Below are positions 8,790 through 63,865 of a stretch of DNA of 64,000 bases, piece after piece (the stretch's first letter is position 1; each line of letters starts with the position of its first letter). The notes below the pieces were generated by a model. That model did no database searches. It had not been told where the DNA came from and was given only the letters and a program-made list of their open reading frames with translations. This stretch comes from a virus. The position numbers and the translations under genes were made by a program. The DNA lies in the IMG/VR virus record IMGVR_UViG_3300047274_000223; one strand, given 5' to 3'.

Positions 8790-9592
8790 TGTTAGGCCAG
8801 TATAGTTATCACGAAATTTTTAAAAAGACCATTATTGGTTTTGGTACTCTTTTCAATAACATACAATTAAGAAGAGTTTCTAATGACAAAACAGAGGTAA
8901 TGAAGGTTCCTCTGGCATATGGTCCTGCGGAGAAATTTCTTGCTCGCCTAAGGCAGACTCCAGATCCCCAAAATGCAAAGGTCCAAATCACTTTACCTCG
9001 AATATCATTCGAGATGGATACCATTCAGTATGATAGCGATAGGAAAGTTGCTCCCACCCAAAGCATCAAGTTTAAAAATGCTGGTGCAAATGATGGTATG
9101 TCAACGGCATACATGCCAGTTCCATATAATCTTGGATTTACTCTAAGTGTCATTTCAAAGAATCAAGATGACGCCCTACAAATTGTAGAGCAGATTCTAC
9201 CATATTTCCAACCTTCATACAACTTCACTGTAGATTTGGTTCCTCAAATCGGAGAAGTAAAGGATATAATTGTTAATATGGATAGTGTCAGTTTTGAGGA
9301 TGATTATGATGGAGAATTTGATCAGAGAAGGGCACTAATATACACCTTCAAATTTACAGCAAAAACATATCTGTATGGACCAGTAAGAGAACCATCAGTT
9401 ATCAGAAAGGCACAGGTCGATACTTATACTTCTATGGATACAGTAAATGCACCAAGAGAAGTAAGGTACACTGTTACACCAGATCCACTCAATGCAGAAG
9501 CCGATGATGATTTCGGATTCAGTGAAGTGTTCTCAGAATTTACGGACATGCAAAAATGGAATCCCGATACAGGAGCGGATGAACCCTTATGA
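8789..9592 (+). CDS. gp15: Tail sheath stabiliser / completion protein gp15
   Basis: FGTLFNNI, KVPLAYGP, LPRISFEM and QIVEQILPYFQP motifs. Confidence 0.95.
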   Translation: MLGQYSYHEIFKKTIIGFGTLFNNIQLRRVSNDKTEVMKVPLAYGPAEKFLARLRQTPDPQNAKVQITLPRISFEMDTIQYDSDRKVAPTQSIKFKNAGANDGMSTAYMPVPYNLGFTLSVISKNQDDALQIVEQILPYFQPSYNFTVDLVPQIGEVKDIIVNMDSVSFEDDYDGEFDQRRALIYTFKFTAKTYLYGPVREPSVIRKAQVDTYTSMDTVNAPREVRYTVTPDPLNAEADDDFGFSEVFSEFTDMQKWNPDTGADEPL

Positions 9593-9990
9593 GTAGTTAT
9601 GATGGATTAGACGAGGTTTTTGATGTGGAATCAACTGAGATTGTTGAAGCAAAACCAGAAGTTCCACAATCACAAAAACCAGAAATACAGCAAGATTATG
9701 AAGTAACTAGAGCACAGTTACACAATCTTGTTATGAAAGGACAAGAAGCTATCGATGGAATCTTAGATGTTGCCAGAAGTTCTGATCATCCAAGAGCATA
9801 CGAAGTTGCTGGTCAATTGATTAAGAACGTAGCTGATGTTGCAGATAAATTGATCGACCTTCAGAAAAAGATGAAAGATATCGATGAGAAACCTAGATCA
9901 AGTCCTACTACAGTTAATAATACTATGTTTGTTGGATCAACATCAGAGTTGGCAAAACTTCTCAAACAAAATTCCAAACAAACTAAATAA
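9589..9990 (+). CDS. gp16: Terminase small subunit gp16
   Basis: HPRAYEVAGQLIK and NNTMFVGSTSEL motifs. Confidence 0.93.
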   Translation: MSSYDGLDEVFDVESTEIVEAKPEVPQSQKPEIQQDYEVTRAQLHNLVMKGQEAIDGILDVARSSDHPRAYEVAGQLIKNVADVADKLIDLQKKMKDIDEKPRSSPTTVNNTMFVGSTSELAKLLKQNSKQTK

Positions 9991-10023
9991 AGTATAGGAA
10001 AGAAATTATTTTGGAGTAAATAA

Positions 10024-10572
10024 ATGACGGTTTTAAAGTTGGTGCAGCATTTAACACCACTCATCGATAATTCTGCTACTGTTAAATATACAGATCCAGC
10101 AATTGTGAAATCTGGTGTTTATAAAGTAAGCAACGCAGATACTCATTCATGTAAGGTTTGTATTGGTGGGAATCCACTTATTGTCGATGATGACGCTTGC
10201 CATATTTTACCAGGAGAGGTCGCTATTGTTAAAGCAGCAACTCCAAAAAGAGCACAAGTTATTGGAATAACTAAGGGTGCTACCACAGTTCTAAATGTAG
10301 ATCAAGATGGAAGAAAGCCATCGCATCCATTTAGAGTTGGTGATTACGTGACCATTACTGGTTCTTCAGTAGCAGCATACAACTCTGGTATTGCACATGT
10401 GGCGATAACAGCAATTACCGATACCACTATTACTGTTAGTGTTGATTCATCCGCATATTCAAATTTTACTGGAACTGCAACTCTAAGTAATTCTATTAAA
10501 ATTTCCGCCAAAGGAGATACTAATAATGGTTTAACTGTTTATTGTTCTGAGGTTCAAGTTGTAGGTGGTTGA
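10024..10572 (+). CDS. Hypothetical virion protein (beta-rich, HPFRVGDYVTI segment)
   Basis: Downstream of late promoter CTAAATA at 9983-9989; composition resembles a structural protein. Confidence 0.65.
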   Translation: MTVLKLVQHLTPLIDNSATVKYTDPAIVKSGVYKVSNADTHSCKVCIGGNPLIVDDDACHILPGEVAIVKAATPKRAQVIGITKGATTVLNVDQDGRKPSHPFRVGDYVTITGSSVAAYNSGIAHVAITAITDTTITVSVDSSAYSNFTGTATLSNSIKISAKGDTNNGLTVYCSEVQVVGG

Positions 10573-10573
10573 T

Positions 10574-11293
10574 ATGCTCAACGAAAACGTATCTACTGGT
10601 GGTGCTAGAAGAGCACGATTCGGTGGCATCAAACAGAGAGTCGGATCTTCTGAAGTAATCTCCAATAAAGATGTCGCAAACGCAGCACAGAAGTCTGCAG
10701 ATGCTAAGAAATCTGCTGGAGATGCTGCTCATGCTGCTGCAACCAAGGCAGGCAAAAGTCCTATGGAAGCAGAGACAGCAAGAAACAGAGCACATAGAGA
10801 ATACGAAAAGGCACAGAAGAAAGCACGTCTAAACAGTTCATACATCCCTTCTTTCGCTGAATACATCCAAGAGGCCAAAGAAAAGGATCATGAAGTTTCG
10901 ATGGCACAATCACAACTAGATAATGCTGCCAAGAATATTAAAACACTCAAGAAAAGTCTAGGAAAAAAAGAGAAGAATATTCCTGCTTGGATGCAAGCAA
11001 AAATTACTGATACTGCTCATAATATGGATGCTGCAGCAACATACAAAGAAAGTGCTGCTTGGACTCGTAAAGAGGGTAAGAATAAGAATGGTGGATTAAA
11101 CGAGAAGGGTCGTAAGTCATATGAAGAAGAGAATCCTGGTTCAGATTTGAAGGCACCTCAACCTGAAGGTGGTCCTCGTAAGAGATCTTTTTGTGCCAGG
11201 ATGAGTGGAATGAAAGACAAACTAACAAGTGAGAAAACTGCAAATGACCCCGATTCTCGCATAAATAAGTCGTTACGTGCGTGGAAGTGCTGA
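10574..11293 (+). CDS. Modular basic/acidic protein with a DUF6321-like C-terminal domain; probable internal head protein
   Basis: Modules are separated by LNE, YIQE and YKE sites; C-terminus AAWTRKEGKN...RKRSFCARM...INKSLRAWKC. The ATG at 10574 is preferred over the GTG at 10565. Confidence 0.7.
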   Translation: MLNENVSTGGARRARFGGIKQRVGSSEVISNKDVANAAQKSADAKKSAGDAAHAAATKAGKSPMEAETARNRAHREYEKAQKKARLNSSYIPSFAEYIQEAKEKDHEVSMAQSQLDNAAKNIKTLKKSLGKKEKNIPAWMQAKITDTAHNMDAAATYKESAAWTRKEGKNKNGGLNEKGRKSYEEENPGSDLKAPQPEGGPRKRSFCARMSGMKDKLTSEKTANDPDSRINKSLRAWKC

Positions 11294-11400
11294 TGTCTAA
11301 GTCACCCAACAAAGGCAAGAAAGGTTCTGCTGGAAATAAAAAACAGAATCAAGGAAACGCAACTGCTAAGAAAGCAAAGAACGGCGGAAAGAAAAAATGA
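11293..11400 (+). CDS. 35-aa highly basic micro-protein (MSKSPNKGKKGSAGNKKQNQGNATAKKAKNGGKKK)
   Basis: Exactly fills the gap between its neighbours, with TGATG overlap upstream and ATGA overlap downstream; not in the ORF track. Confidence 0.7.
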   Translation: MSKSPNKGKKGSAGNKKQNQGNATAKKAKNGGKKK

Positions 11401-11834
11401 GTTTGAAAGATCCTTACATCTATCGTGTTAGACAAGTACATAATGTTGTTGATGGTGACACTATTGACGTTGATATTGATTTGGGGTTTGATATCTCTCT
11501 TGCTAAGAGAGTTCGTTTGGCTGGTATTGATACCCCAGAAAGTCGCACGAAAGATGCGTATGAAAAGAAACTCGGTCTCGAATCGAAAGATTGGTTGAAG
11601 CATAGACTAGAGTTTGCTAAGAATATTGTAATCAAGACGGAACTTCCAGACAGCACCGAAAAGTATGGAAGAATTTTAGGATGGCTATATATTAATGATG
11701 AACAAACTTCACTGAACGAGCAAATGATCCAACAGGGTTATGCTTGGTCTTATCTTGGAGATACTAAAGTCAAAGACTTTGCACTTCTAGAAGCAAGACG
11801 CAAAGGTGAAGTTGATGACCGTAATTTTGTATGA
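11397..11834 (+). CDS. Thermonuclease (SNase-like) endonuclease
   Basis: VVDGDT, VRLAGIDTPE and KYGRILG catalytic motifs. Confidence 0.9.
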   Translation: MSLKDPYIYRVRQVHNVVDGDTIDVDIDLGFDISLAKRVRLAGIDTPESRTKDAYEKKLGLESKDWLKHRLEFAKNIVIKTELPDSTEKYGRILGWLYINDEQTSLNEQMIQQGYAWSYLGDTKVKDFALLEARRKGEVDDRNFV

Positions 11835-36735: not shown

Positions 36736-37110
36736 ATGGCCGATAACAGTAACAATAAGAAGGCACAATGTATGAGTACTATTGTTAGAATTTCAGTTTT
36801 GAGTTGGAGTGCTGCATTACTTACCGCTAGTTATGCTGGTTTACTTTCCAAGATGGATCCAACTTTTATTGCTACAGTCTTTACTGCCGCTGCAGCAACT
36901 TTCGGTGTAGATACACTGAAGAAGAACGAAAAGGATAAGGAAGAAGATGCCAAACCAGATTCCATCCCTGCCACAACAGCAGTTGAACCAATTGTCCAAC
37001 CAGTCTTCGATACCCCAGTTGCAGTCGAGCAACCTGCAGACGCTTCAACCATTGAAGAATCAGTCGCAGACGATACAGCGCCTTCAAGGTACTCTGATAC
37101 CGAGGCTTGA
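36736..37110 (+). CDS. Small membrane protein (two TM segments, acidic tail)
   Basis: Hydrophobic ISVLSWSAALLTASYAGL and FIATVFTAAAATFGV; late promoter AATAAATA at 36698-36705. Confidence 0.75.
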   Translation: MADNSNNKKAQCMSTIVRISVLSWSAALLTASYAGLLSKMDPTFIATVFTAAAATFGVDTLKKNEKDKEEDAKPDSIPATTAVEPIVQPVFDTPVAVEQPADASTIEESVADDTAPSRYSDTEA

Positions 37111-37858
37111 ACCCCCTGCAGTTGATGCATTGCAAGTCCCTGTTACTCGGGGGCTTGCTTTGCCTGTATTTGAGGCACCTGATTCATCAATCAAGTATCC
37201 AGTTATAAATGTTCCTACACAGGAAGAATTTGATGCAGCCGTAAAAGCAGAGAAAGAAAAGCAGGCAGCGGAAAAAGAAGAGAAGTCTAGAGGTTTGCCA
37301 GATGCTAAGCCACCAGACCTCCCTGCTGCTGTTCAGGCACTCACCCAGACCCCTCCAGTCACCAAGGCAGAGATCCCAGCAGACAATCCTACTATCAACG
37401 TGGCAGGGGTCAAGGTGGACCTCCCAGACCCCTCTCTGGTGGCAACGGCAGGGGCAGTGGCAGTGGTGACGACTGCTTCCACCATGGTCGCAACTACAGC
37501 ATTTAACGCATTAAAGAATGCTGCTGAACCGATCATTAAAGAAGCAACAAAGAAGAAGTTTAAAATTAAGATCAAGCAAGTCAAACCTGTTCTACATTAT
37601 GTCTTAGCAGAAGGGGGACATATTGATATCTTTGAATACTCTGCAGATGGTACTAGACTTGTGGATCAAGTAGAGAACGTGGAGCAATATATTAGAGATC
37701 AAGTTGAGATCAATTCTCTCTATGAACTTGATAACAAGATTATTATTGATGATGTCATAGCAGAGAAATTTACAAAAGAGGGGCAAACGAGGTTTAAGCC
37801 CTTGTTTGCCCCTGCTAAGAAGATCGCTAAGAAATTATCTGCTAAGTTCTCAATCTGA
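36947..37858 (+). CDS. Pro-rich hypothetical membrane protein
   Basis: 303-aa ORF with YPVINVPTQEEFDAAV motif and one Ala/Thr/Val-rich TM segment; start uncertain because it overlaps the upstream gene. Confidence 0.7.
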   Translation: MPNQIPSLPQQQLNQLSNQSSIPQLQSSNLQTLQPLKNQSQTIQRLQGTLIPRLEPPAVDALQVPVTRGLALPVFEAPDSSIKYPVINVPTQEEFDAAVKAEKEKQAAEKEEKSRGLPDAKPPDLPAAVQALTQTPPVTKAEIPADNPTINVAGVKVDLPDPSLVATAGAVAVVTTASTMVATTAFNALKNAAEPIIKEATKKKFKIKIKQVKPVLHYVLAEGGHIDIFEYSADGTRLVDQVENVEQYIRDQVEINSLYELDNKIIIDDVIAEKFTKEGQTRFKPLFAPAKKIAKKLSAKFSI

Positions 37859-39148: not shown

Positions 39149-39390
39149 ATGCGATCATCCCATCCTGTGTGTTGTGCATATTCTGTGTATAGTCTTCTGA
39201 TATCACGATCAACATGATTTAAATCATCGAGAGGTGGTTTGTATCCTTGACTAATTAGATAGTCAATAAATTCATAAATGTGTGGAGTAATCTCTGCTTT
39301 CATTCTGACAAAAGAAGATAAGTAAAAGGCTCTTGCTTGCCATTTTTCGTCTCGTTCTCTCCAGTCACTTGGTCTTGTGTGTGTGATCAT
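39145..39390 (-). CDS. Hypothetical protein
   Basis: 81-aa ORF in tandem with neighbours; ITPHIYEFID motif. Confidence 0.65.
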   Translation of the reverse strand: MITHTRPSDWRERDEKWQARAFYLSSFVRMKAEITPHIYEFIDYLISQGYKPPLDDLNHVDRDIRRLYTEYAQHTGWDDRI

Positions 39391-39496
39391 CCTTCATCTC
39401 CTCGTTTGCTAATCGTAAGATATAGTAGATGATGTATAAAGTGAATATCAATCCACTTCCTAAAATAACCATAACTCCCCATGGAAATTCACTCAT
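39365..39496 (-). CDS. 43-aa single-TM micro-protein (MSEFPWGVMVILGSGLIFTLYIIYYILRLANEEMKDDHTHKTK)
   Basis: GAGG RBS region; TM helix; translated by hand. Confidence 0.6.
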   Translation of the reverse strand: MSEFPWGVMVILGSGLIFTLYIIYYILRLANEEMKDDHTHKTK

Positions 39497-39599
39497 CATC
39501 GTCCTCGTATGTACAAGGTTCCTCAAAGAGTTCATCCATTTTTTGTTTATAAACTCTTTCTCTTAATTCTTGTAGGTCTTCTTCTGTTAAAACAATCAT
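39489..39599 (-). CDS. 36-aa acidic micro-protein (MIVLTEEDLQELRERVYKQKMDELFEEPCTYEDDDE)
   Basis: ATGA coupling and AAGGA RBS. Confidence 0.6.
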   Translation of the reverse strand: MIVLTEEDLQELRERVYKQKMDELFEEPCTYEDDDE

Positions 39600-39775
39600 T
39601 TGTCCTTAAGTATATCTTCTATTCTTTTACGCATATTTGTACTATCTTGTTTCATATAGTCACGAAGAGAATATCCACGTTGGTTTCTTAGGATACATGT
39701 TCCTTGATAAAACATCGTGGCAGCAAATACTAATAGGAAAGCGATTCCTATTATTTCAGGGTAATGTTCAGCCAT
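39596..39775 (-). CDS. 59-aa single-TM protein (MAEHYPEIIGIAFLLVFAATMFYQG...)
   Basis: Translated by hand; coupled to the downstream ORF. Confidence 0.6.
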   Translation of the reverse strand: MAEHYPEIIGIAFLLVFAATMFYQGTCILRNQRGYSLRDYMKQDSTNMRKRIEDILKDK

Positions 39776-39969
39776 GGTAGAAGTGGAGGAATAACACCAA
39801 TCAGTCGAAGAAGTCCTTCAGCAAATAAAGCAAGGACCACCCAACCAACACACATAGAAATAATGGAAGCATTCCTATTGTGCCTTCGTATAGCAGCATC
39901 AATCATCTCCTGGCACTCTTTCTGTGTCACTAGATGTTCTGGGTCTATTTGATTCATTCGGTGGCTCAT
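39751..39969 (-). CDS. Small membrane protein
   Basis: ECQEMIDAAIRRHNRNASIISMCVGWVVLALFAEGLLRL; likely start MSHRM. Confidence 0.7.
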   Translation of the reverse strand: MSHRMNQIDPEHLVTQKECQEMIDAAIRRHNRNASIISMCVGWVVLALFAEGLLRLIGVIPPLLPWLNITLK

Positions 39970-40069
39970 GGATTTTAGCAATACCAATAATCGGTAGTAT
40001 AATCAGAGCACCACTTAAGATGCCCAAACTAACAGTATTTGTTAAGATTTCAACTACCAGGTGTCTCAT
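39899..40069 (-). CDS. 56-aa single-TM micro-protein (MRHLVVEILTNTVSLGILSGALIILPIIGIAKIH...)
   Basis: ATGA coupling with the upstream ORF. Confidence 0.55.
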   Translation of the reverse strand: MRHLVVEILTNTVSLGILSGALIILPIIGIAKIHEPPNESNRPRTSSDTERVPGDD

Positions 40070-40209
40070 AGATTTTGTTCTTTATAATTTTTCAATTTAT
40101 TGACGAGGTGTTGGTATTCTTGTTTAGCACTCTTATCAGTTGTTGACGCTGATTTCTCAGCACATAAGATGATCAAACGATTGATGTCTTTTTCTGAAAG
40201 TGAGTACAT
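40066..40209 (-). CDS. 47-aa hypothetical protein (MYSLSEKDINRLIILC...EYQHLVNKLKNYKEQNL)
   Basis: AAGGAGG RBS. Confidence 0.65.
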   Translation of the reverse strand: MYSLSEKDINRLIILCAEKSASTTDKSAKQEYQHLVNKLKNYKEQNL

Positions 40210-40221
40210 TTAAATACCTCC

Positions 40222-40353
40222 TTATCCATGCACAATAGTCATAAGAATAGTACCGTGTTTTCTAATAACATCCAAGTGAGATTTACCCCATGGAATTTCA
40301 AACCATTCAACTCTTTTGTTATGCCGTAAAAGCATGACTGATACATATCGCAC
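40222..40353 (-). CDS. 43-aa hypothetical protein (MRYVSVMLLRHNKRVEWFEIPWGKSHLDVIRKHGTILMTIVHG)
   Basis: GTG start downstream of an AATAAATA late-promoter-like site. Confidence 0.5.
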   Translation of the reverse strand: MRYVSVMLLRHNKRVEWFEIPWGKSHLDVIRKHGTILMTIVHG

Positions 40354-40374: not shown

Positions 40375-40965
40375 TTATTTATTTTGATTACTTGGATTTG
40401 TAACAATTGTAGGTGAGGGATACCTGACAACCACATCTGCACAGATCTTATAGTATGGACTGTCTGGATGAAATGTAATACCAGACTTGATTGCCTCTCC
40501 ACACTTTAAAAGTCTTACTAGTTCGAAATCGAGACGTGCTTTATCTGCTTCTGCTTTTTGTCTTTCTATTTCTGTACGTGCTCTTGCTTTACAAAGTTCC
40601 ATTAGACCACCATCTAAGGGAACATTTATTCCTGCCGAGATACCCCAGTTTTCGTTTCTGGATGCGAATGTTTCTGGATCATCACTATTGTTTCCACTTC
40701 TTAGTAAGAATGGGGACACTGAGAACGTCGGGCCCTGGCAACTAACCCCCGCTCCGTAGGTATTAACTGCGTATGGACCTTGCAATACCTGTACTGCTTG
40801 ATTAGTAACATTGCCAGTGGCAGATGCACTAGGGCCAGCAATGTTAGTATTAGAAGGAGCGGGAGTACTTTGCGCGAGAACTGGTAATGTTCCACAACTA
40901 ATTACTGCGTAAAAACAGAGATTGATGTAGTGGTTGATTGAGTTTCTGTGGTGCGATCTATCCAT
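40375..40965 (-). CDS. Secreted Cys-containing hypothetical protein (third gene of the exported-protein operon)
   Basis: Signal-like segment ending PVLA|QS; ATGNVTNQAVQV motif; four Cys in the mature part. Confidence 0.75.
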   Translation of the reverse strand: MDRSHHRNSINHYINLCFYAVISCGTLPVLAQSTPAPSNTNIAGPSASATGNVTNQAVQVLQGPYAVNTYGAGVSCQGPTFSVSPFLLRSGNNSDDPETFASRNENWGISAGINVPLDGGLMELCKARARTEIERQKAEADKARLDFELVRLLKCGEAIKSGITFHPDSPYYKICADVVVRYPSPTIVTNPSNQNK

Positions 40966-41261
40966 GTTTCTTTTGCCAATCCAGGACCGAGAGTAGTTTC
41001 ACTGAACTGGAATGGAGCACCTTGATTCATGATAGTATAGTTTGCTCCTGGTGTAGGAGTGCCAGGAATATTAATATTAGTTCCAGTGACAGTATAAGAC
41101 GTGCCAGTTGTATATTCAACTTGACGAATAGTTTCTATGATCTTTGTTGATGACTCTGTTGTAGAGTTAATAGTTCCTCTGGTAAAATTGGGAACAACTG
41201 ATTCTGCTAGGGCAGCATTATGAAACCCTAGCAGGAGTAAACCTGCTAGGATCTTTTTCAT
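40902..41261 (-). CDS. Secreted Thr-rich hypothetical protein
   Basis: Sec signal MKKILAGLLLLGFHNAALA|ES; VVPNF motif; C-terminus ISVFTQ. Confidence 0.8.
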   Translation of the reverse strand: MKKILAGLLLLGFHNAALAESVVPNFTRGTINSTTESSTKIIETIRQVEYTTGTSYTVTGTNINIPGTPTPGANYTIMNQGAPFQFSETTLGPGLAKETWIDRTTETQSTTTSISVFTQ

Positions 41262-41725
41262 TTGAATACGCTCAACTCGATACTACGTTGTGCTGTTCCT
41301 GTGGTTCCTGGACCACCAGCAGTAATAGTTGGAACACCAGTGGCACTCAAAGTACCAGCAAGAGTTCCTTTGTCACCAGCTAACTGAGTAACAGAATCCC
41401 CATAAAGGTTGGGAGAAGCAATTGCTCCAGCACTAACCGTTTGAGAGGTGACAACTGTATCAGCAGCATTGAAACTTTCTGAGAAAGTAAATGCTTGCCC
41501 TGCTGTATTGACATCATAAGTTCCTGCCCCAGCAACTCCACCAAAAGAAGTTGCTTGAATATTTGTTCCTGATACGGAGTATGATGCTCCTATTCTCGTT
41601 GACTGAACTGCGGCACCTTGCACACCCAACTGAACTGAATCAGTAATTCTCGAAGTAATTTCAGCTGCGAATGATGATGGCATAACGAAAAAGGATGCCG
41701 CAAGTGCGGTGATTACCTTTTTCAT
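41258..41725 (-). CDS. Secreted Gly/Ala/Thr/Ser-rich beta protein
   Basis: Sec signal MKKVITALAASFFVMPSSFA|AE; no Cys; C-terminus IELSVFK; GGAG RBS. Confidence 0.82.
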   Translation of the reverse strand: MKKVITALAASFFVMPSSFAAEITSRITDSVQLGVQGAAVQSTRIGASYSVSGTNIQATSFGGVAGAGTYDVNTAGQAFTFSESFNAADTVVTSQTVSAGAIASPNLYGDSVTQLAGDKGTLAGTLSATGVPTITAGGPGTTGTAQRSIELSVFK

Positions 41726-41764
41726 GTTCGGTTTCTCCTAAAATGTTTAAATGACGACCGTAGA

Positions 41765-41781
41765 TATTTATGCTATAAATA
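41765..41781. promoter_or_regulatory. Divergent late promoters (minus CATAAATA 41772-41765; plus TATAAATA 41774-41781)
   Basis: Back-to-back consensus boxes between the exported-protein operon and hsp20. Confidence 0.75.
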
Positions 41782-62474: not shown

Positions 62475-63865
62475 CTTTACCAGCATCAGGATTAAAATTA
62501 ATCAAAGAGTTTGAAGGGTGCAGATTAACTGCTTATCCCGATCCTCTTTCTGGAGGTAAACCATATACATGTGGTTGGGGTTCCACTCGTAAGAGGGATG
62601 GATCCCCTTTTTCCTTAGGTGAAACTATCTCTCAGGTAGAGGCTGACTCACTCTTAGAGGAAGAATGCGAAAAGCATTTCCTTCCATCACTCACTAAAGT
62701 TCCATATTGGAACGAGATGTCTCCTGAGCAACAGGGGGCACTTTTGTCGTTTGCATATAACCTAGGAGCAGGATTCGTTGGAGATCGTTCTAACTTCAAC
62801 TCAATCAACACTGCTCTAGAGTCAAAAGCAAACTGGGTCAATGTACCAGCAGCACTCTATAAGTACCGCAACCCAGGATCGTCCGTAGAGGCAGGTCTAG
62901 CACGTCGTAGGACTGCTGAGGGTGATCTATGGAAGAAGGGCATGGCAGGTGGTTCTGCTGCCCCTGCAGCTGCTCCTGCTGCCCCTGCAGCACCAGTACA
63001 GACTGTTCCACCATCCAAGGTTCTTATCAACTTCTTTAAGTTCTATGATGAGAACAACGACAACCATGTTGCAGCAGTAGAACTACTTGAGGCATCGATT
63101 CCTGAGCACCTCAATCAGGATTCACCTTGGGTTGTAACCTATCGTGGTGGTAATGCTACTGGTGGCAAGCCCGATCTACACAAGTTCTTTGAGTTCTTCT
63201 CCGAGAGAAATTCAAATCATCTAACTGCTGTTGCTCAACTAGAAGCAGCAATGAAAGTTACTGATCCAGATTGTCTCGTTGATGACGGCGCTGGTGGTGC
63301 TATTGATTCTGCCTGGATTGAAAAGTATCGTAGCAAACCACCCATTCCACCTGTTCTTCCTGTACCATACTTCAATCAGGTGGACAACTACAGAGACGCA
63401 CATAGAACTTGCAACAGTTCCTCTTGTGCTATGTGTCTAGAGTTCCTCAAGCCTGGTACTCTATCAGGTCCTAAGGGAGACGATGCATATGTTACGAAGG
63501 TATTCCAGATCGGTGATACAACTGATCACGCAGTTCAGACGAAGGTTCTTGCGTCATATGGAGTCAAGTCCCATTTCTCATATAATCTATCCTTTGCTGA
63601 TCTGGATAAGTCCCTTGCTCGTGGTAAGCCCGTGGTTATTGGCATTCTCCACAGGGGTTCTCTTAGTGCTCCTACTGGTGGACACATGTGTGTAGTCATC
63701 GGTAAGAAGGGTGATGGATATGTCGTAAATGATCCATATGGTTCATGTAACGATAACTATACTGGTCCTGTAACCAACGGTAAGGGCACAGTATACAGCA
63801 GAGCAATGCTCAAGGCACGTTGGTGTCCTGGTGGCAATGATGGTTGGGGTCGTATTTTTGATTAA
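62471..63865 (+). CDS. Endolysin: GH24 lysozyme, two helical repeats and a C39-like peptidase
   Basis: KEFEGCRLTAYPD...TCGWGST and GLARRRTAE (GH24); VPYFNQ...CNSSSC, GGHMCVV and VNDPYG (Cys-His-Asp triad). Confidence 0.9.
   Translation: MTLPASGLKLIKEFEGCRLTAYPDPLSGGKPYTCGWGSTRKRDGSPFSLGETISQVEADSLLEEECEKHFLPSLTKVPYWNEMSPEQQGALLSFAYNLGAGFVGDRSNFNSINTALESKANWVNVPAALYKYRNPGSSVEAGLARRRTAEGDLWKKGMAGGSAAPAAAPAAPAAPVQTVPPSKVLINFFKFYDENNDNHVAAVELLEASIPEHLNQDSPWVVTYRGGNATGGKPDLHKFFEFFSERNSNHLTAVAQLEAAMKVTDPDCLVDDGAGGAIDSAWIEKYRSKPPIPPVLPVPYFNQVDNYRDAHRTCNSSSCAMCLEFLKPGTLSGPKGDDAYVTKVFQIGDTTDHAVQTKVLASYGVKSHFSYNLSFADLDKSLARGKPVVIGILHRGSLSAPTGGHMCVVIGKKGDGYVVNDPYGSCNDNYTGPVTNGKGTVYSRAMLKARWCPGGNDGWGRIFD

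Follow-up and report, generated by a model that had tools for sequence, protein, structure and literature searches.

A conserved five-gene envelope module of picocyanobacterial phages and its possible role in breaching the outer membrane at lysis

Much of the carbon fixation in the ocean is due to picocyanobacteria, and lysis by phages governs the amount of this carbon that is released. The closest known phage systems to the locus described here include the two-component spanins (lambda Rz/Rz1, T7 gp18.5/18.7, and T4 PseT.3/PseT.2) and the unimolecular spanin T1 gp11, products of late envelope-protein genes with overlapping frames. To our knowledge, neither a holin nor a spanin is known from the T4-like and T7-like phages of picocyanobacteria. 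Kongari et al. (2018; PMC6139136) listed P-SSP7, P-HM2, P-SSM2, Syn9, S-PM2, and about 15 further picocyanophages as spanin-less and raised the question of an alternative way across the outer membrane. Here we analyze a 64,000-nucleotide stretch of viral DNA (IMG/VR record IMGVR_UViG_3300047274_000223, hereafter the window) that carries a conserved gene trio, g1, g2, and g3, together with two membrane-protein genes of the DUF6450 and phrog_9426 families. As judged from gene content and order, these five genes make up an envelope module common to two unrelated picocyanobacterial phage families, which narrows the question of the spanin-less phages to five candidate genes. The reading that we favor, with a probability of roughly 0.4, is that of a late, periplasm-spanning module by which the outer membrane is broken during lysis. 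Such a module would serve a function already familiar in phages, the disruption of the envelope at lysis, with unrelated parts, and would represent a new class if the mechanism were confirmed.

The window belongs to a T4-like cyanomyovirus; it has ~40% G+C and genes for gp43 polymerase, clamp loader, UvsX, gp41, hsp20, and a 2OG-Fe(II) oxygenase. Its nearest isolate is the freshwater Synechococcus phage DSL-LC03 (Kyanoviridae), with 80% DNA identity across the trio region and protein identities of 87% (g1), 82% (g2), and 74% (g3). All three genes lie on the minus strand, and their open reading frames (ORFs) overlap just as an initial annotation, made from the sequence alone, had reported: g1 (41258-41725) encodes 155 amino acids (aa), g2 (40902-41261) 119 aa, and g3 (40375-40965), which starts within g2, 196 aa. 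The overlap between g1 and g2 is 4 nucleotides (nt; ATGA) and is retained in 49 of 51 freshwater loci; that between g2 and g3 is 64 nt, and the open g3 frame extends into g2 at all 235 loci compared. A frameshift fusion of g2 and g3, suggested by a g3 frame that stays open far into g2, is ruled out by P-SSM2, in which the two genes lie 45 nt apart. By their conservation we take the trio to be genuine genes rather than chance ORFs, because tblastn finds matches in many phage records (211 for g1 and 462 for g3) and because the proteins match PHROG families 564, 650, and 848/1755, respectively, with E values of 1e-29 to 1e-55.

The trio is already catalogued, but it is uncharacterized. The orthologues of g1, g2, and g3 are T4-GC 237, 236, and 235 (PSSM2_242/241/240 and PHM2_197/196/195), and PSSP7_044 and PSSP7_045 are direct orthologues of g2 and g3; gene order and overlaps are the same. 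The g2 protein is a member of Pfam DUF6322 (PF19847; 50.1 bits, E 4.4e-13, gathering threshold 30.6 bits), and g1 scores 14.2 bits, under that threshold. All of these T4-GC, DUF6322, and PHROG names are catalogue entries without assigned function. Searches of Pfam, NCBIfam, and PHROG with the trio and its cellular relatives returned only families of unknown function, and a search of the literature on OMP1 (a name carried by some g1 records), DUF6322, cyanophage signal peptides, spanins/holins, and the locus tags found no functional study. T4-GC 235 and 237 are present in 15 of 16 cyanomyoviruses, and all three clusters are entered as "Hypothetical-Protein" with no structural flag, the mark of an experimentally determined virion protein (Sullivan et al. 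2010, PMC3037559, File S1). The file with the virion proteome of S-SM1, Syn9, and S-PM2 (Table S8 of the same study) contains neither 235 nor 236, and 237 is ambiguous there, the same number also being a gene size. The lack of a structural flag speaks, in line with the initial annotation, against ordinary virion components. The g3 matches include the T7-like podoviruses P-SSP7, P-SSP2, and P-SCSP1a. The members of the trio are passed on together: in 213 of 213 loci g2 immediately precedes g3, and g1 lies upstream in 114 of 114 myovirus-type loci and in 0 of 68 podovirus-type loci.

The trio travels with two putative inner-membrane partners. The DUF6450 partner (PF20048; 36736-37110, plus strand; 65.8 bits, E 3.1e-18, against a threshold of 25 bits) belongs to the PSSP7_043 family, of which PSSP7_043 itself scores 111 bits, and is a small protein with two transmembrane (TM) segments and a charged tail, a predicted topology that resembles a class II holin. 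The phrog_9426 partner, of the PSSP7_042 family, occupies ~36947-37858 on the plus strand; its start codon is uncertain, and its similarity to relatives begins at ~37073. A Pro/Gln-rich N-terminal half is followed by a single TM segment, which lies in the C-terminal half of the protein, and by a stretch rich in Lys; the predicted topology is N-out/C-in. In P-SSP7 the genes 042 (phrog_9426), 043 (DUF6450), 044 (g2), and 045 (g3) are contiguous between the tail-fiber and (small) terminase genes, and all four families are present in the window. The equivalent genome position in T7 is held by the holin (17.5) and the spanins (18.5/18.7).

We surveyed linkage in 240 loci, comprising 80 freshwater myovirus, 80 marine myovirus, and 80 podovirus loci. 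The phrog_9426 gene directly follows g3 on the same strand in 65 of the 80 freshwater loci (median gap, 81 nt), so that the usual freshwater operon is g1-g2-g3-phrog_9426, and it lies upstream in 71 of the 80 podovirus loci. DUF6450 is found within 3 kb of g3 at 144 of the 240 loci (40 freshwater, 30 marine myovirus, and 74 podovirus), and an endolysin gene lies within 3 kb at 16 of the 80 freshwater loci. In DSL-LC03 the key genes fall within ~6 kb, in the order endolysin, endolysin, autotransporter-like gene, DUF6450, phrog_9426, and then, convergently, g3, g2, and g1. In the window, unlike in most freshwater relatives, phrog_9426 is not found after g3 but lies on the other strand. A pair of adjacent endolysin-like ORFs (62477-63862, plus strand) shares 66 to 73% identity with the two DSL-LC03 "endolysin" genes directly upstream of DUF6450 and phrog_9426. 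The initial annotation, which had proposed a surface filament or appendage, missed the two membrane-protein partners, the T7-like position in podoviral cyanophages, and the endolysin link; the latter two speak for lysis no less strongly than for a surface filament.

Signal peptides had been claimed for all three products, and both the N-termini and a rule applied to homologues agree with this prediction. The predicted signal of g1 spans approximately residues 1 to 20 (41666-41725, minus strand) and consists of MKK, a hydrophobic core, and then SFA/AE; that of g2 (approximately residues 1 to 19) begins likewise with MKK and a hydrophobic core and ends in ALA/ES; and that of g3 has a basic N-region, an 18-residue hydrophobic core, and then VLA/QS. 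A simple, crude signal-peptide rule, applied to homologues within 240 related viral contigs, was satisfied by 51 of 51 and 60 of 63 g1 homologues and by 61 of 62, 72 of 75, and 73 of 75 g2 homologues, or more than 95% of g1 and g2 overall. We conclude from these signals that g1, g2, and g3 are predicted Sec-exported proteins.

The composition of the exported proteins was also described accurately at the outset. The g1 and g2 proteins contain no Cys, are rich in Thr, Gly, Ser, and Ala, and are beta-rich paralogues that share the core motif G-SY-V-GTNI ... F-FSE (BLASTP E 7e-5). They end in a similar strand, which is conserved in freshwater relatives (ELSVFK in 51 of 51 g1 sequences; xSVFTQ in 62 of 62 g2 sequences), and g2 also conserves VPNF at its mature N-terminal end; the C-terminal end of marine g1 differs (TELTIK and similar). 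The g3 protein is of a different kind. Its signal peptide is accompanied by a GxVTNQ block that does not vary, by a beta-hairpin of amphipathic character, by a helix of 42 residues, and by four Cys (C76, C125, C155, and C175) that are invariant across 82 sequences of 30 to 85% identity and that fit an oxidizing compartment. Its best-conserved stretch is residues 43 to 63 (~40777-40839), with the motif GxVTNQAxQ and with P45, G51, V53, and N55 invariant. The proposed arrangement of two paralogous beta-rich subunits and a distinct, Cys-stapled third protein is thus supported by the BLASTP match and by Cys conservation. The possibility that g3 is a lipoprotein, raised by a VIS-C sequence in the window copy, was ruled out, as this sequence was not conserved in the seven genome-derived homologues inspected, which have AxA-type sites.

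A late promoter had been proposed upstream of g1, and a late-type box, CATAAATA (41765-41772, minus strand), is indeed a motif match 39 nt before the g1 ATG; among 105 distinct relatives, 77 have [AC]TAAATA at a distance of 23 to 28 nt before g1. The box forms one side of a palindrome with a plus-strand ATAAATA at 41775-41781 that faces hsp20. The palindrome as a whole (41765-41781) reads GATATTTAT-AGC-ATAAATATC, with the late-type boxes of g1 and hsp20 as its two halves, and these are candidate back-to-back divergent late promoters, 3 nt apart. Expression of the trio is mid to late in the relative P-HM2 on Prochlorococcus MED4 (Thompson et al. 2016, PMC5082946, supplementary file 3), where PHM2_197 (g1) is classed as Late (E) and PHM2_196 (g2) as Late (D)/Mid (C).

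Structural models were made for g2 and g3. The AF2 model of g2 (39 diverse sequences; pLDDT 80, pTM 0.34) pairs residues 28 to 51 with residues 94 to 118 in a ribbon whose strands are ~25 residues long and which carries a small beta domain at one of its ends. A wide VIA comparison with the PDB placed long hairpins of the lysenin, anthrax PA, and iota-toxin pores, the phi29 tail knob, and FliF rings in the top rows at Z scores of 3.2 to 4.0, a range that is common for unrelated folds according to the notes of the tool; the best row was lysenin 5gaq (Z 4.0, root mean square deviation 5.1 Å, 49 residues). Foldseek found no PDB match to the g2 model at E values up to 0.001, and a fold search of BFVD returned only cyanophage homologues. 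The ~25-residue strands of g2 resemble the hairpins that build such rings and pores, with all fold scores within the range for common arrangements, and differ from pore hairpins in being polar on both faces. That polarity fits a soluble oligomer rather than a lipid-facing barrel in the model of g2.

The AF2 model of g3 (82 sequences; pLDDT 69) comprises the signal helix, short strands between residues 66 and 116, and a confident 42-residue helix at residues 119 to 160, in agreement with the charged helical segment and four Cys that had been ascribed to the third protein. The highly conserved residues 43 to 63 are modeled worst (pLDDT below 50), and this pairing of highest conservation with poorest modeling suggests a strand that folds only on a partner. 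Column statistics identify a 13-residue strand (residues 105 to 117) of strictly alternating hydropathy and a partner strand (residues 74 to 88), with a loop of low conservation between them that takes up 34 insertion columns in marine phages; a hairpin that enters a membrane or edges a sheet, its loop exposed, shows such a pattern. The combination of strands and a long helix is reminiscent of TolC/OEP and of hairpin barrels and rings (lysenin, aerolysin, anthrax PA, the phi29 tail knob, FliF, and SpoIIIAG). The match of g3 to OEP (PF02321), for a monomer model with a pLDDT of 69, is 14.1 bits (E 0.043), under the 22-bit cutoff, and TolC, which is not among the top fold matches, appears against the g3 model in Foldseek only at E 3.6 and a probability of 0.05. 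Foldseek returned nothing below E 1.8 for g3, VIA returned generic long helices only (Z up to 4.3), and an ESM Atlas search returned only viral hypothetical clusters; sequence profile searches of the PDB gave no match for g3 and only chance-level rows for g2 (E at least 0.27). Neither model has a known-fold match in the searches that we ran.

Export signals, the co-travel of five genes, mid-to-late expression, and the absence of a virion flag lead us to propose that the trio is the exported half of a five-gene envelope module made late in infection. A role in lysis is suggested by the T7-equivalent position in podoviruses, the holin-like DUF6450 protein, the endolysin neighbors of some loci, the near-core distribution, and the work of Kongari et al. 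(2018), who speculated that the part of a spanin could be played by an outer-membrane protein together with an inner-membrane protein of N-out/C-in topology whose TM segment is C-terminal (PMC6139136). The phrog_9426 protein and g3 fit that speculative description. We envisage that the inner-membrane parts would be the two-TM DUF6450 protein, with its holin-like topology, and phrog_9426, held by its single TM anchor with the long N-terminal part in the periplasm. The g3 protein would oligomerize, insert its conserved amphipathic hairpin into the outer membrane or lay it against that membrane, turn its variable loop outward, and extend its disulfide-stapled helix into the periplasm, while the conserved strands at the termini of g1 and g2 would serve for their binding. 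With the Pro-rich phrog_9426 anchor included, the complex would connect the inner and outer membranes, and once endolysin had cut the wall, it would open or tear the outer membrane. The job of a spanin would thus be done without lipoproteins in phages that lack a known spanin. Localization, assembly, and the lysis role in this scheme are all inferred.

Several predicted features of the module resemble spanins: a coiled-coil-type periplasmic helix with flanking Cys, a Pro-rich periplasmic partner, and an inner-membrane anchor, all in phages that are listed as spanin-less and, in P-SSP7, at the T7-equivalent position. Unlike spanins, it shows no sequence or fold similarity to them and no lipoprotein, it contains two extra beta-ribbon proteins, the g3 signal is probably cleaved rather than an N-terminal anchor, and the TM segment of phrog_9426 lies in the C-terminal half with a predicted N-out orientation. 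When compared with an i-spanin, g3 has the N-terminal hydrophobic segment and a Cys-flanked helix of 42 residues, but its signal is probably cleaved, as judged from AxA motifs; phrog_9426 is membrane anchored, yet Pro-rich with its TM segment in the C-terminal half. When compared with an o-spanin, the trio lacks a lipobox with an acylated Cys, as g1 and g2 are Cys-free and VIS-C in g3 is not conserved.

A number of observations weigh against a role in lysis. Pfam, PDB profile, and fold searches revealed no homology or fold match to a holin, spanin, endolysin, or pore, and there is neither a lipobox in the trio nor any Cys at all in g1 and g2. The homologues of g3 have AxA-type cleavage motifs, for which reason g3 is probably soluble rather than membrane anchored like an i-spanin, and the strands of g1 and g2 (Thr/Ser-rich in g2) are polar on both faces and so are not membrane strands. 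The positional analogy with T7 is weak evidence. In the window, the membrane-partner genes are 2.5 kb from the trio on the opposite strand, and the endolysin pair is 22 kb from the cassette. PHM2_195, the g3 gene of P-HM2, is classed as Mid (C), middle rather than late (PMC5082946). Finally, intact copies with low ratios of nonsynonymous (dN) to synonymous (dS) divergence occur in two host chromosomes, which is odd for a purely lytic function and a better fit with a protective role.

A bolder form of the proposal is tentative, and we consider it more doubtful than not: the five genes may encode a new, lipoprotein-independent class of envelope-spanning machine for outer-membrane disruption, which arose from a rare cyanobacterial system of a g3-like protein plus secreted subunits. 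Its parts would be an N-out/C-in Pro-rich inner-membrane anchor, a disulfide-stapled helix-plus-hairpin protein (g3) that oligomerizes in the outer membrane, and two beta-ribbon paralogues. Were this true, it would explain how lysis is completed in the ~20 picocyanophages listed as spanin-less.

The host-genome copies were found with the DUF6322 hidden Markov model (HMM) in 401 genomes of the picocyanobacterial order, reached via psbA; a locus search of genome contigs with g2 alone found no relative. DUF6322 occurs in 7 of the 401 genomes, all 7 with both g2 and g3 and 5 of them also with g1, in the same order. Five of the seven are apparent phage contigs binned with the host (189, 194, 41, 41, and 52 kb) that carry other phage genes. 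The remaining two (G229 and G251) have the full cassette on host contigs with a G+C content of 65%, where it sits in a stretch of 52 to 58% G+C (L177, 1130-2834, and L178, 302-2034), 4 to 8 kb from ndhI, ndhA, and the citrate synthase gene gltA; a phrog_9426-like gene stands beside the G229 cassette. The expectation of the initial annotation that similar clusters exist in picocyanobacteria therefore holds, with the qualification that they are rare (full cassette in 2 of 401). GC3, the G+C content at third codon positions, is 0.52 to 0.71 in the host cassette genes versus 0.89, and between G229 and G251 these genes have a dN/dS of 0.05 to 0.13 and a dS of 1.3 to 3.9, against a dS of 0.25 for the flanking ndhA. 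The cassette genes are by these measures foreign and were not coinherited with their flank. Because their dS far exceeds that of ndhA, the alleles of the host island must have been replaced or acquired separately at one locus.

More distant cellular relatives of g3 were detected with a g3 profile (E 1e-7 to 1e-16) in 5 further genomes of the 401 in the order; a phylum-wide sample of 401 genomes gave 4 with such genes, including G027, which already counts among the order's 5. One g3-like gene resides in a 5.99-Mb Calothrix-type chromosome (G660). In that genome (L357, 6503-8119) and in G501 (L358, 7569-9718), the g3-like gene (E ~1e-13) is followed by one or two paralogous signal-peptide proteins of 126 to 147 aa that end in HET[ST]AG[VI]R and next by a TM protein with a weak DUF3862 match; this cluster may be a cellular counterpart of the cassette. 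In G027 (L359, 4275-8926) the g3-like gene lies amid five or six signal-peptide proteins, several of which end in ..[ST]VF.. (SLTVFDQ, YTVFSY, and LPSVF), recalling the C-terminal end of g2. Homology of these neighbors to g1 and g2 was rejected, profile comparison being not significant (E 0.005 and 0.35), and the neighbors of the cellular g3-like genes matched no known family. New in this analysis are the intact host-genome copies (2 of 401) with their divergence pattern, the distant cellular g3-like family, and the hydropathy and indel pattern of the g3 hairpin.

Against the proposed breach of the outer membrane at lysis stands the suggestion, close to that of the initial annotation, that the module makes a phage-encoded surface polymer that remodels the infected cell surface, with g1 as the major subunit, g2 as a minor or nucleating subunit, g3 as an outer-membrane channel or assembly factor, and phrog_9426 as the anchor. 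We regard this as unlikely, although two paralogous, Cys-free, beta-rich subunits with conserved N- and C-terminal strands are what a polymer would call for, the long two-stranded ribbon and low pTM (0.34) of g2 are as expected for a piece of an oligomer, the hairpin-plus-helix layout of g3 could form an oligomeric channel, and the cellular g3-like genes beside small signal-peptide proteins, both Calothrix-type and picocyanobacterial, suggest a system of a channel plus secreted subunits. The likeness to curli (CsgA/CsgB/CsgG) and Fap (FapB/FapC/FapF) is one of logic only, namely, paralogous exported beta subunits with a possible channel bearing a periplasmic helix; the g2 model is a single long hairpin rather than a beta-solenoid, and g1 is absent from podovirus cassettes (0 of 68), so that the supposed major subunit would be dispensable. 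The strand-complementation or curli-like logic that had been invoked finds no support in Pfam, where searches at E values up to 1 returned no curlin, CsgG, Fap, fimbrial, usher, or chaperone family, and the g1 and g2 alignments contain no Q/N-rich repeats. A chaperone-usher system is further disfavored by the lack of a large barrel gene in the cassette and by a g2 model that is not Ig-like. The fold searches produced no fiber fold, their best score (Z 4.0) falling on beta-hairpins of pore and ring proteins; the homology of the cellular neighbors to g1 and g2 is not significant; and a surface structure made in the middle to late phase would have little time in which to benefit the phage. The premise that a lytic phage has no need to export such proteins was too strong, for cyanophages such as P-SSM2 carry the periplasmic phosphate-binding protein gene pstS. 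An envelope-modifying exclusion system is similarly improbable in our judgment. It would mask receptors or block DNA entry, either to spare progeny from adsorbing to lysing cells and debris or to exclude rivals, and the host copies would be domesticated defenses; the intact cassettes of low dN/dS in a low-GC island near ndhA, ndhI, and gltA of two host chromosomes accord with this, as does a cassette dS far above that of the flanking gene, such as is seen in fast-turnover islands. The known exclusion proteins T5 Llp, T4 Imm/Sp, and Cor are likewise small envelope proteins. Such genes, however, are usually early, variable, and lineage specific, whereas this module has mid-to-late expression and a near-core distribution that takes in both myoviruses and podoviruses, whose adsorption organelles differ; five coinherited genes are elaborate for receptor masking, and the low dN/dS may stem from selection in phages before transfer. 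If the module is a surface structure or an exclusion system instead, it would still be a conserved phage remodeling of the cyanobacterial envelope.

Two further explanations carry much less weight. That the module is an accessory channel of the outer membrane or an aid to uptake, which would raise the nutrient supply through a pore or a carrier in the periplasm in the manner of pstS, we consider very unlikely. The idea draws on the name "OMP1 protein" given to g1 in S-CAM, ACG-2014, and other records, on the cassette's position next to pstS and talC in P-SSM2, and on the amphipathic hairpin of g3. We found no traceable evidence for the name in the literature, the one paper with both terms being unrelated; there is no porin similarity, g1 is much too small and polar for a barrel, expression is late rather than early, and homologues are nearly absent from hosts (7 of 401, mostly phage contigs), unlike those of host-derived metabolic genes. 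Least probable of all, with only a slight chance in our estimation, is that these are ordinary virion or virion-assembly proteins: a late promoter box and the clustering of g1 with structural genes in the P-HM2 expression data would suit such a role, but all three proteins carry Sec signal peptides, and T4-GC 235 to 237 are unflagged hypotheticals, two of them (235 and 236) missing from the virion proteome table file (Sullivan et al. 2010).

Some minor observations concern unusual forms of the cassette and its surroundings. Two podovirus-sized contigs of 41 kb carry g1 together with g2 and g3 (L176 from G179, 9714-11470, and L175 from G401, 9270-11256), and DUF6450 adjoins the trio in both, directly upstream on the same strand in L176 and divergently in L175. 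A metagenomic protein of 81 aa (P0136) begins as the N-terminal half of g2, finishes with the g1 C-terminus (..ELSVFK), and is either a g1/g2 recombinant or an assembly artifact. Another, of 1338 aa (P0198), consists of ten tandem repeats of ~95 aa, each weakly like the g2 core (whole-protein E 9e-7), a resemblance that reflects either composition or distant kinship with a cell-surface repeat domain. Downstream of g3 in the window, at 39365-40353, lie small minus-strand ORFs (PHROGs 5190, 1096, 1953, and 25130, families without assigned function), at least three of which have one TM segment; this run is outside the conserved module, the trio being alone on its strand in P-HM2 and P-SSM2.

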